Shown: positions 25,079-30,038 of the stretch, piece after piece
How the letters are laid out: each line of letters begins with the position of its first letter
Position numbering within the stretch: position 1 is the stretch's first letter
Source: Promethearchaeota archaeon
GTDB taxonomy: Archaea; Asgardarchaeota; Lokiarchaeia; Sigyniarchaeales; SOKP01
DNA: 43,562 nucleotides
Assembly: GCA_016840165.1 (NCBI GenBank)
Contig: JAEOSU010000003.1
Coordinates: forward strand, 1 to 43,562
Reading direction: 5' to 3'
Notes under the pieces: generated by a model
Told to the model about the DNA's origin: nothing
Databases searched by the model: none
What the model saw: the letters and a program-made list of their open reading frames with translations, nothing else
Made by a program: the position numbers and the translations under genes

Positions 25079-26662
25079 ATGTCTGAAAAGAATGACCAGA
25101 TCTTTAAGGCGAGAATGTTTGCTCGCCAACAACTGATTGACGGATGGAACCAAGACATCATGGATAATGGATGTATCATGATTGTGGGAGTTGGTGCCCT
25201 TGGATGTGAAATTGCAAAAGATTTTGCCTTAATGGGTATAGGTAAATTAGTGTTGGTAGATTTAGATACTGTAGAAACTTCAAATCTGTCTCGACAGATG
25301 CTTTTCAAACCAGGAGATGAGGGTCGTCCAAAAGCAGAGGTTGCTGCAGAGCGTTTAAGAGAAATGAACCCTTATTTAAAGGTCGATTTCTATTTTGAAA
25401 AGCTTCAAAAATTACCAATGTCAGTATTTGAGGAATGTGATGTGATTATTGCGGCGTTGGATAACTTTAATGCTAGATTAGATTTAAATAAAATCTGCTT
25501 GAGACTGAAAAAGCCAATGGTGGAAGGAGGCACAGTTGGGTTTGAAGGTCATGTTCAAATTGTAATTCCTGAGGGATCGGGTTTAGAATATAAAGTCAGA
25601 GAGACTGAAGTTGAAAAAGTGGTCGATCAGAAGCTCTGGGAACTTTCAGAAAACGATTATCCAACATATTTCGAAGCATTACAGGAAATCGAAAGGTTAG
25701 AGGATCAAATTGACCGAATTAGAAGCAATCATATTGATCCTGTTAAAGATCAAATAAGAAAACAGGTTGAAGCGGAATTTGATAAAGTATATGCAAAAAA
25801 AGTTTTAGATTTAACTCCTTGTTATCGATGTTTGGTACCTATACCACCTGCTGATGATAAGCTTGTTGCTGCATGTACCTTGAAAGGACTTCCACGAAAT
25901 AGAAATCATTGTGTTATCAAGGCAGAAGTTAATTTTGAGAAAGAATATGGATTTAAACCTGATATGGCCGTTGATGAAGATGTATTTAAGTTAAAAGCTC
26001 TTGCTCAGCAAGAACTTGAAGAATTGCGTCAACGGGTATTTAATGAAAATGTACCTCCCGAAAAATTAGAAACGTTAACCCAGACTGAAATTCAAGAATG
26101 GAAAGATAATATCAAAGCCACTTTTGGTACAGATTTCAAATTTGAGGAGATGGAAAATATTCTCGGGAATAAGATCGCAGCCATCCAATCGGTAAGTTCT
26201 ATTATTTCAAGCATTCAATCTCAAGAGGCATTAAAGCTTTTATTTCGATTACATGGAAGAAACATTGGTCCTCCCATGAACCCTCCCTATGTCAACTATA
26301 ATGGAGTTTATGGACAATTTGACCATTTAGATATCATTAAACGAGATGACTGTCTTGCATGTGGTGATATTGAAGGTGAGGAGAATATCCAACTAGTTGT
26401 ACCGTTTGATGCAGATATCGGTTACATCTTTAAAGCAATGCGAATAATTGGACATGAAATTGAGCCTATATTGTGGATGATGACGAACCCTATAACTAAA
26501 GAATTGTATTGGAATCCATATATGCCTTCAATGAAGGATCCGAGTGTGAAATTAAATGCATTAAAAATTAAAAATAACGATATCATTATTCTCACTCCTT
26601 TAGGGAAAGCAAAATTAGAATCTGAAATCAAGAAATATAATATCGTTATTACCTATATGTAG
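25079..26662 (+). CDS. Ubiquitin-like-protein activating enzyme E1 (ThiF family, UBA2/UBA3-like)
   Basis: GVGALG, DTVETSNLSRQ, ALDN, CYRC and CLAC Zn motifs, candidate catalytic Cys266 in ACTLKGLPRNRNHC, C-terminal ubiquitin-fold-like extension. Confidence 0.9.
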   Translation: MSEKNDQIFKARMFARQQLIDGWNQDIMDNGCIMIVGVGALGCEIAKDFALMGIGKLVLVDLDTVETSNLSRQMLFKPGDEGRPKAEVAAERLREMNPYLKVDFYFEKLQKLPMSVFEECDVIIAALDNFNARLDLNKICLRLKKPMVEGGTVGFEGHVQIVIPEGSGLEYKVRETEVEKVVDQKLWELSENDYPTYFEALQEIERLEDQIDRIRSNHIDPVKDQIRKQVEAEFDKVYAKKVLDLTPCYRCLVPIPPADDKLVAACTLKGLPRNRNHCVIKAEVNFEKEYGFKPDMAVDEDVFKLKALAQQELEELRQRVFNENVPPEKLETLTQTEIQEWKDNIKATFGTDFKFEEMENILGNKIAAIQSVSSIISSIQSQEALKLLFRLHGRNIGPPMNPPYVNYNGVYGQFDHLDIIKRDDCLACGDIEGEENIQLVVPFDADIGYIFKAMRIIGHEIEPILWMMTNPITKELYWNPYMPSMKDPSVKLNALKIKNNDIIILTPLGKAKLESEIKKYNIVITYM

Positions 26663-27852: not shown

Positions 27853-28362
27853 TTAGTCCATGGCATATTTCTTAGCCCAGGACTCTGCTTTACTCTCGAA
27901 CTTTTTCAGAGCTCTGAAGTATTGTTCTCCAGCTTCATGATTAAGTGGATCACCAGGATTAAAGAAGGGAGGTTCTACATGCATCATTCCTTTTAACGCT
28001 TCGATGATATTTGTAAGCGTTTTTGATGGTGTCCAACCAGAAGCACCAGTGGAGGCATCTACTTTACCCACAAGGTCGGGATTAATTAGATCTAAACAAA
28101 TATTTAATTTACCAGGTGGAATGGAAGAATCAATATTCGGATGCCACATGAGTGTCACCGCGTACGCATAAGGCGGTTGGAAGGGATAATTTTCAGGAAA
28201 CTTAATTTCGAATATAAATCGTCCCTTTGCATAGGGAGTACCTTCTTTACCAATAATAGTCAGCCGTAAATGGTCGATACTTCTACCCCATGGTTCAACA
28301 ATTACGTATTCATCATCCTTATACGCTTCAATTGCCTCAGTATAATCGGTCTCTTCTCTCAT
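27853..28362 (-). CDS. Ubiquitin-conjugating enzyme E2
   Basis: GTPYAKGRF, FPENYPFQPP, HPNID, active-site ICLDL (Cys89), WTP, NPGDPLN. Confidence 0.95.
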   Translation of the reverse strand: MREETDYTEAIEAYKDDEYVIVEPWGRSIDHLRLTIIGKEGTPYAKGRFIFEIKFPENYPFQPPYAYAVTLMWHPNIDSSIPPGKLNICLDLINPDLVGKVDASTGASGWTPSKTLTNIIEALKGMMHVEPPFFNPGDPLNHEAGEQYFRALKKFESKAESWAKKYAMD

Positions 28363-29912: not shown

Positions 29913-30035
29913 CCCCTCCTAGCTCAGCCTGGAAGAGCACTCGGCTGTAGATTAAATCGCGTAATGAGGCTTGATGCCGATGAGTATACGTCAGCCGAAA
30001 CCGAGATGTCGCTGGATCAAAGCCGGCGGAGGGGA
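29913..30035 (+). tRNA. tRNA-Tyr(GUA) with 49-nt intron at canonical 37/38 (29951-29999)
   Basis: Acceptor CCCCTCC/GGAGGGG + discriminator A, D-stem GCTC/GAGC, anticodon stem CTCGG/CCGAG, anticodon GTA at 29947-29949, T-stem GCTGG/CCGGC; C1-G72; CCA not encoded. Confidence 0.93.
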
Positions 30036-30038
30036 CTA

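Follow-up and report, generated by a model that had tools for sequence, protein, structure and literature searches.

The question raised by this locus is whether the intron of a tRNA gene can direct the modification of the very anticodon that it interrupts. A preliminary description of the window (the whole analysed stretch of 43,562 nucleotides, contig JAEOSU010000003.1 of a Promethearchaeota archaeon) had marked the intron of a tRNA-Tyr gene as a putative built-in H/ACA-type guide for the pseudouridylation of U35 (Psi35). ARAGORN found the gene solely with the intron search switched on and called no gene at the locus without it; the gene is the sole tRNA-Tyr match in the 3.6-Mb metagenome-derived assembly. 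Rfam, used at gathering thresholds, returned no match at the locus. The sequencing runs listed for the locus were DNA metagenomes, with no RNA run among them. The splice junctions, G37/N and N/A38, were fixed by relatives carrying a canonical splice motif. The gene is laid out as follows:

29913..30035, + strand: tRNA-Tyr(GUA) gene, from ARAGORN -i (reported span 29913-30036) and a cloverleaf drawn by hand; the discriminator A is 30035
29913-29950 and 30000-30035, + strand: 5' exon and 3' exon, from the 37/38 junctions
29951..29999, + strand: intron of 49 nt at the canonical 37/38 position
29940..29944, + strand: 5' strand of the anticodon stem, paired with 30001-30005 in the mature and splicing folds

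Within and around the intron, the following elements were distinguished; they are together referred to as the module:

29959..29991, + strand: K-turn hairpin, from the sequence, the minimum free energy (MFE) folds and an alignment of 81 sequences
29959-65/29984-91, + strand: NC stem of the K-turn hairpin, with bulged A29986
29992..29998, + strand: 3' guide-like arm CAGCCGA, directly adjoining the hairpin base
29941..29947, + strand: target strand U28-G34 (UCGGCUG; anticodon stem 5' strand plus C32-U33-G34), from the MFE folds
29948..29949, + strand: U35-A36, the sole unpaired nucleotides at the three-way junction, the same in relatives; U35 is the proposed target
29950..29958, + strand: mini-hairpin G37-A-U/A-U-C with a UAA loop, the equivalent of a 5' guide; the 5' splice site lies inside it

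The hairpin was evaluated first against the definition of a K-turn and then against its relatives. The NC stem contains seven base pairs (G29959.U29991, C29960-G29990, G29961-C29989, U29962-A29988, A29963-U29987, A29964-U29985 and U29965.G29984), which lead into the tandem sheared pairs G29966.A29983 and A29967.G29982, the 3-nt bulge G29979-A29980-U29981 and a GGC/GCC C-stem (29968-70 with 29976-78) capped by a 5-nt loop (29971-75). All the hallmarks of the motif, namely a 3-nt bulge, tandem sheared G.A/A.G pairs and a Watson-Crick C-stem, are therefore found in the intron hairpin, and each element of the hand-drawn structure was recovered at its place as a consensus K-turn. In the alignment, the bulged strand AUGA was almost invariant, with UGA in 80 of the 81 sequences (GGA in L162), and RA on the non-bulged strand was invariant. 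The U at L3 and the GA were near-invariant, and the -1b.-1n pair was C-G in 60 of 78 sequences. The 2b.2n position is occupied by A.A in most relatives; A.A at this position is a rare natural K-turn variant. All three pairs of the C-stem covaried, and a K-loop takes the place of the C-stem in some lineages. The sequence of the long (NC) stem was wholly different between lineages and showed compensatory pairs, with many double changes in this stem and likewise in the C-stem.

The distance between the hairpin base and the distal G.A pair was conserved as well. The two strands measure 9/10 in the window and 9/10, 10/10 or 10/11 in relatives from several phyla, and these lengths are kept although the single bulged nucleotide sits at a different height in each clade. 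This clade-specific height shifts the register and accounts for the unpaired cells in the long-stem alignment. The NC stem never had more than one bulge in relatives, except for the degenerate f19 variant L153, in which two bulges were parsed by hand. In the upper (P2) stem of archaeal H/ACA RNAs, the K-turn lies 9-10 nt from the base (PMC7075261; PMC7991803). The spacing of nine pairs claimed in the preliminary description, seen here as 9/10 in the window and conserved as 9-10 layers in relatives, fits this H/ACA rule (PMC7075261).

The complementarities proposed for the two flanks of the hairpin were likewise borne out. UCGGCUG (29941-47), which ends at G34, is matched over its full length by its complement CAGCCGA (29992-98), and AAUC (29955-58) is complementary to GAUU (29950-53). 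The earlier caution that merely two or three pairs of the latter can form in cis was also justified, three pairs being possible (G37-C29958, A29951-U29957 and U29952-A29956). U35 and A36 stay unpaired at the stem base in the window fold, as had been claimed, and the same arrangement was seen across relatives. The pairing of 29992-98 with 29941-47 and that of AUC 29956-58 with GAU 29950-52 together form a bipartite guide, in which the target U and the nucleotide 3' of it are free.

Among the 81 aligned sequences, the arm pairs at positions 30-34 form in 86-100%. The pairing spans at least G31-G34 in relatives, but a C32xA mismatch is present in 11 of the 81, and all substitutions at arm positions 1, 2 and 4 preserve wobble pairing. 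A spacer between the hairpin base and the arm is absent in 80 of the 81 sequences (L098 has a 3-nt UGG), and the stem base itself is degenerate in two f19 sequences. Beyond G30, 35, 31 and 18 of 54 were paired at positions 29, 28 and 27, respectively, compared with 31.7, 26.3 and 18.0 after shuffling, an excess with a summed p of ~0.035 without phylogenetic correction and with weak covariation. Single lineages nevertheless show compensatory arm pairs, such as U29:A in f17 and the 8-bp arms of several DPANN-labelled records. The second pair of the 5' mini-helix showed real covariation in the same alignment (AU 57, GC 12, UA 7, CG 1, other 3). The mini-helix is energetically marginal (+1.3 kcal/mol) and cannot form in the three lineages L027, L029 and L095; its loops are of the GNRA type in some lineages.

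Another possibility is that the excised intron, linear or circular, guides in trans the modification of another pre-tRNA-Tyr molecule or of some other RNA. Both arms could then form fully, with 7 bp on one side and the 4-bp GAUU/AAUC helix on the other, and the 5' flank of L027 (GAUAUC) is too short for a cis fold-back. The C/D guide in the tRNA-Trp intron is reported to act in trans. However, a search of the window's genome revealed no other site matching both arms, and the GNRA-type loops fit cis folding. We consider action in trans very improbable.

The secondary structure of the precursor was predicted using ViennaRNA. Both for the entire pre-tRNA and for the anticodon arm, the MFE fold contained the arm helix together with the hairpin. 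The guide fold reached -18.1 kcal/mol, compared with -12.2 kcal/mol when the anticodon stem was enforced and -10.5 kcal/mol for the anticodon stem combined with the hairpin. In the favoured fold of the pre-tRNA, four of the five nucleotides of the anticodon stem 5' strand (29941-29944) are taken by the arm. According to these models, the guide fold and the splicing-competent fold are mutually exclusive, and the fold that cannot be spliced is favoured by ~6 kcal/mol.

In a canonical archaeal intron, the 3' end pairs with C32-U35 between two 3-nt bulges, forming a 4-bp central helix of the bulge-helix-bulge (BHB) motif. The corresponding strand of the window was read from the sequence:

29994..29997, + strand: strand of the relaxed BHB central helix, overlapping the arm

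Three of the four central pairs can form in the window (G29994.U35, C29995-G34, C29996xU33, G29997-C32), and the bulges 29949-51 and 29998-30000 hold the splice sites. Relatives with a separate splice strand have all four central pairs. In these relatives (L013, L028, L092, L097, L099-101, L103, L104 and others), the arm CAGC(C) follows right after the hairpin, and further 3' there is a distinct canonical strand (GCAG, ACAG or AUAG, with a 3-nt bulge after it), which competes with the arm for the same anticodon-loop bases. The separation of the two strands in several lineages indicates that the arm is not there merely for splicing. In the overlapped designs, the base opposite U33, whose partner in the arm register is G30, is C or U and never the A that would perfect the splice helix. 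We also considered the arm itself as the central BHB helix in another splice register, and rejected this because the anticodon loop would then have 8 nt or a bulge 6 nt, and because relatives with a separate canonical strand place the junctions at 37/38. Two EndA paralogs of ~207 aa each are encoded in the window's genome, which suggests a splicing endonuclease of broad specificity.

Two exclusive folds, a preference of ~6 kcal/mol for the non-spliceable one and a relaxed splice motif with three of four central pairs are also what might be expected if the hairpin bound L7Ae for a structural or regulatory purpose unrelated to pseudouridylation, be it as a folding chaperone site, as a timer that keeps the pre-tRNA from being spliced until a protein refolds it, or as a means of turning the excised intron into a stable K-turn RNA. 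L7Ae binds many classes of RNA (PMC7991803). Families without the module splice their tRNA-Tyr introns with canonical motifs, so that the module is an add-on, and this too is in line with such an element. On the other hand, a purely structural role gives no account of why U35-A36 alone are left unpaired, why the arm adjoins the hairpin base and why the H/ACA ruler holds across phyla, nor does it account for the presence of the module on tRNA-Tyr only in this genome. We regard this explanation as rather doubtful.

The distribution of the module was determined by BLAST followed by two covariance models built from relatives. The covariance models detected it in 28 of 36 genomes of the genus and in 123 of 151 genomes of the class, including 35 of the 40 high-quality ones. 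In a draw from the phylum, the models matched 55 of 151 genomes; four of these matches (family f8) were not the module and corresponded to tRNA-Tyr genes with a different intron. Elsewhere in the phylum, the module was found in families f9, f10, f17, f19 and f23, and the models did not find it in f12 (0 of 26 genomes) or in several other families. There was one module match per genome, always in tRNA-Tyr, as in the window's own genome, and the module was also present in G044, a genome of the same order that consists of a single 4.4-Mb contig. No K-turn hairpins were seen in the other anticodon-loop introns of the window's genome. In addition, 185,579 species genomes were scanned with a loose exact pattern. 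Among the matches listed were tRNA-Tyr introns labelled Woesearchaeota, Nanoarchaeota, Thermoproteales/Thermoproteati, Methanosarcinales, Thorarchaeota and Heimdallarchaeota. The bacterial matches were parsed in the same way and served as a control for what the pattern alone forces: a valid K-turn hairpin was present in 22 of 29 archaeal tRNA-Tyr introns and in 3 of 51 bacterial chance matches, among the matches listed.

In the 81 aligned sequences, 85.7% of the cells paired in the proposed fold, compared with 72.2% in shuffles. The covariation score was 0.348, compared with 0.132 in shuffles, and was reached by none of 500 shuffles; slid controls scored far lower. The alignment of Asgard tRNA-Tyr introns, which the preliminary description had put forward as a check, thus returned a conserved K-turn and covarying stems, with weak covariation of the arm beyond G30. 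Conservation and covariation exclude a chance resemblance. A box C/D-type methylation guide resembling that of the tRNA-Trp intron was also considered, since the bulged strand AUGA and the UGA/UAA of the other strand recall C' and D' boxes. Such a guide has a C box (RUGAUGA), a D box (CUGA) and a free guide sequence that ends at the fifth nucleotide upstream of D. However, no D box follows the arm, which rules out a box C/D guide, the stretch preceding the D'-like box is paired rather than free, and Rfam finds no C/D family. Taken as one alternative, a C/D guide or a coincidence is hardly credible.

The comparison with known guides divides the earlier claim of an H/ACA pocket geometry into two parts. 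The K-turn, the arm, the unpaired U35-A36 and the short 5' helix are conserved and support it, but the module is not a classic H/ACA RNA. As in an H/ACA guide-target complex, two guide-target helices and an upper stem meet in a three-way junction, the target U and its 3' neighbour are unpaired at the base of the upper stem, and the K-turn is placed 9-10 nt away. Functional archaeal guides combine a strong 3' guide with weak 5' guide pairing and have no more than one bulge in the upper stem (PMC2377435), and the window likewise has a strong 3' arm and a weak 5' helix. The separate lower stem of classic H/ACA RNAs is absent, as had been cautioned: on the 5' side, the flank leaves the target directly as a loop; on the other side, the arm extends into the 3' splice site, and complementary flanks do not exist. 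Classic H/ACA RNAs also have an ANA box (usually ACA), located 14-16 nt 3' of the nucleotide across from the target U; this box is absent too. The earlier caution that a canonical ACA is missing was correct, but the AGA at 30004-06 mentioned in its place, which starts 13 nt from the arm start, was not conserved in relatives; it is limited to genomes with a CCGAG stem and absent from those with a CCGUG stem, so that a conserved ANA box was ruled out. With neither a lower stem nor an ACA, the module falls outside the classic H/ACA family.

A closer match was provided by the atypical H/ACA RNAs of Sulfolobus islandicus (sR109, sR136, sR148 and sR563) and Pyrobaculum, which have neither a lower stem nor an ACA (PMC11077068). 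L7Ae and Cbf5-Nop10 both bind to these RNAs, and their activity, seen in vivo as well as in vitro, depends on L7Ae and Gar1; Pyrococcus proteins accept them, and one member has a 3' guide only (PMC11077068). The absence of a lower stem and ACA is therefore no longer disqualifying, as these RNAs lack both yet function. The tRNA-Tyr module shares with them a single K-turn hairpin, the lack of a lower stem and ACA, and a single-stranded 3' guide at the hairpin base and, as far as can be judged from its sequence, fits their structural definition, except that it is not free-standing. A 5' guide is optional under this definition. The atypical RNAs are also self-pseudouridylated in their 5' region through a 2-4-bp fold-back on their own 3' guide (PMC11077068), a cis reaction with the same topology as the one proposed here for the tRNA-Tyr intron. 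They differ in being stand-alone RNAs that mostly act on rRNA targets in trans, and their self-modification has been described as a side activity, whereas the tRNA-Tyr module is part of an intron in the RNA that it presumably targets and must unfold for splicing.

In Sulfolobales, Psi35 of pre-tRNA-Tyr is itself a proven target of H/ACA guides, which pair across the intron (PMC2651775; PMC11077068). The classic guides involved, Sso1, Sto1, Sac1, Mse2 and Ape7 (Sulfolobales and Aeropyrum) as well as sR115, resemble the module in targeting U35 and in carrying a K-turn in the upper stem. The pairing partner of their 3' guide is the anticodon stem-loop on the 5' side of U35, and that of their 5' guide is the intron sequence on the 3' side of A36. 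They occur where Pus7 has lost the basic residue of motif IIIa, a residue that the Pus7 of the window's genome keeps. Guides built into tRNA introns are known from another class: the euryarchaeal pre-tRNA-Trp intron is an L7Ae-binding K-turn C/D guide aimed at its own anticodon region. It differs from the tRNA-Tyr module in directing 2'-O-methylation by fibrillarin, in its boxes, and in its ruler, which counts to the fifth nucleotide upstream of D. The tRNA-Met intron of Nanoarchaeum also carries a C/D RNA (PMC3491384). In the searchable full-text literature, we met with no account of a tRNA-Tyr intron that carries a K-turn or an H/ACA-like element.

The protein genes required by a guide of this type were identified in the window's genome, which encodes Cbf5, Nop10, Gar1 and L7Ae, in addition to L30e. 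The preliminary description had also called for a check for Pus7/TruD, and a full-length Pus7 that retains the catalytic Asp as well as the Lys of motif IIIa was found in this genome, in which the basic pair that follows the Asp in motif II is changed to K-L. Across Asgard genomes, Pus7 was present in 145 of 151. The motif II pair was KL, HT, AS or SN in some families with the module and KR, RR or KH in others, and KL, KE, KD or AA in some families without it. We therefore rejected the loss or decay of Pus7 as the reason for the module, as the enzyme is near-universal and the divergence of motif II does not track the module; the logic of Sulfolobales, in which a guide rescues a crippled Pus7, is not supported for the same reasons.

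An intact Pus7 that is nearly universal in the phylum leaves room for a different role of the same fold, in which the arm and the L7Ae-bound K-turn would stiffen the junction and present U35-A36 to Pus7, as an archaeal version of the intron dependence known from eukaryotes. In yeast and plants, the formation of Psi35 requires the intron, and the Pus7 of Pyrococcus is able to form Psi35 in vitro (PMC2651775). The eukaryotic reaction concerns the same tRNA, the same position and the same need for an intron (PMC2651775), but it is protein-only, with short introns that have no K-turn. Families f8 and f13 point in a similar direction: their tRNA-Tyr intron combines a canonical splice strand with a complement of the anticodon arm and has no K-turn, so that the arm may have a role independent of L7Ae and Cbf5. 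Against a scaffold for Pus7, U33 and G34 belong to the sequence context of this enzyme but are buried in the fold, and the spacing of 9-10 layers is explained by the L7Ae-Nop10-Cbf5 architecture and not by Pus7. Moreover, we know of no partnership between L7Ae and Pus7. In S. islandicus, Psi35 is unaffected by the deletion of Pus7 (PMC11077068). A role in presenting U35 to Pus7 is, in our view, unlikely.

We tentatively favour the reading of the tRNA-Tyr intron as a cis-acting, atypical H/ACA-type guide for Psi35 in its own target, a reading that we consider quite possible while falling slightly short of calling it probable. In the order of events that we infer, the pre-tRNA would adopt its most stable fold, in which the pairing of CAGCCGA with U28-G34 drives out the anticodon stem 3' strand and G37-A-U pairs with A-U-C. 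The K-turn hairpin would stack on the junction and leave U35-A36 alone unpaired at its base. L7Ae would then bind the K-turn and, through Nop10, set Cbf5 (together with Gar1) 9-10 helical layers away, over U35, which would be converted to Psi35. Once the proteins leave, the arm region could re-pair with C32-U35 in the overlapping register, restoring the anticodon stem, and the relaxed BHB would be cut at 37/38 by the two-paralog splicing endonuclease.

If the intron does act as a cis guide, it would provide the first case of a pseudouridylation guide housed in an intron of the RNA that it targets, and the H/ACA counterpart of the C/D guide in the tRNA-Trp intron. It would put the cis self-modification recently seen in atypical H/ACA RNAs to physiological use, show what a tRNA intron can be for and account for a programmed change of fold between modification and splicing. 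It would also offer a testable origin for both the eukaryote-wide retention of the tRNA-Tyr intron and the need of Psi35 for it. In a broader and rather unlikely scenario, the module would be an ancient cis guide shared across archaeal phyla (Asgard, DPANN and Thermoproteales-type), the guidance of Psi35 would be the original reason for retaining the intron, and the intron dependence of Psi35 in eukaryotes, together with their universal tRNA-Tyr intron, would descend from it.

As a within-genome reference for the spacing, the window's genome was also scanned with a descriptor of classic H/ACA sRNAs, which gave no enrichment over a reversed-sequence control (252 raw matches versus 137 in the reversed sequence, and 6 versus 11 at the strict setting) and yielded one well-formed intergenic candidate. 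The target search for this candidate was swamped by low-complexity matches. As for the surroundings of the tRNA-Tyr locus, it is flanked by genes for an E2-type ubiquitin-conjugating protein and a histone deacetylase, and a ThiF/E1-like gene is also located nearby.

The tRNA-Tyr introns of two other Asgard families, f8 (loci L154 and L155) and f13 (locus L329), lacked a K-turn, yet contained an internal stretch complementary to the anticodon arm. This complement was CAACCGAG in f8, opposite positions 27–34, and CAGCCGG in f13. The canonical splice strand, i.e., the bulge-helix-bulge partner of C32–U35, was also present in all three introns, besides the internal complement.

Many relatives within the genus (L009, L010, L014–L016 and L018–L027) carried a second tRNA-Tyr intron, located in the T-loop after approximately position 58, and the BLAST matches therefore ended at query position 109. 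Two relatives' genomes (G007 and G026) showed additional interruptions of the tRNA-Tyr on the 5' side of C32, along with another, incomplete copy. The T-loop of the window's tRNA-Tyr (30016–30022) read AUCAAAG, while CUCAAAU was found in most genus relatives (L005–L027); the usual U54 is thus absent, being replaced by A54 and C54, respectively. The T-loop of the relative's locus L002 had the ordinary form, UUCGAAU.

The ARAGORN analysis with intron search identified only 23 tRNA genes in the window's own genome (G000, 99.7% complete), approximately half of which were interrupted. This set agrees with a 2026 preprint (10.64898/2026.10.13.758758), which described Asgard tRNA genes as heavily interrupted, often in non-canonical ways. 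One of the ARAGORN calls carried an insert in the D-region:
G000:C63:165021-165137, 'tRNA-Ala' call with D-region insert
The insert contained a stem and a C-box-like GAUGAUG, and may represent a further tRNA intron with a K-turn.

The genome-wide scan, which showed no enrichment in comparison to its control, yielded one well-formed candidate for a classic H/ACA sRNA outside the window:
G000:C58:26558-26616, minus strand, candidate classic H/ACA sRNA
The candidate combined a lower stem of 7 bp, a pocket of 7+7 nt and an upper stem of eight layers that carried a K-loop, its distal G.A being reached after 10/10 nt; 14 nt preceded the ACA box. It was located within an ORF-free gap of 550 bp, 2.4 kb away from the Gar1 gene, and a C-box-like AUGAUGA was positioned directly upstream.

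The stand-alone synthase Pus7 was also encoded in this genome:
L031:1435-2814 (G000:C2), Pus7
Pus7 proteins of the window's class had K-L after the catalytic Asp, where a KR/RH pair is conserved. The corresponding residues were H-T in family f2, and AS, SN, KE, KD or AA in other Asgard families. Asgard archaea vary far more at this pair than published work on other archaea suggests.

Two genes were located a few kb upstream of the tRNA-Tyr gene:
window 25079-26662, ThiF/E1-like gene
window 27853-28362, UQ_con (E2) gene
They represent the ubiquitin system of eukaryote-like type that is characteristic of Asgard archaea.
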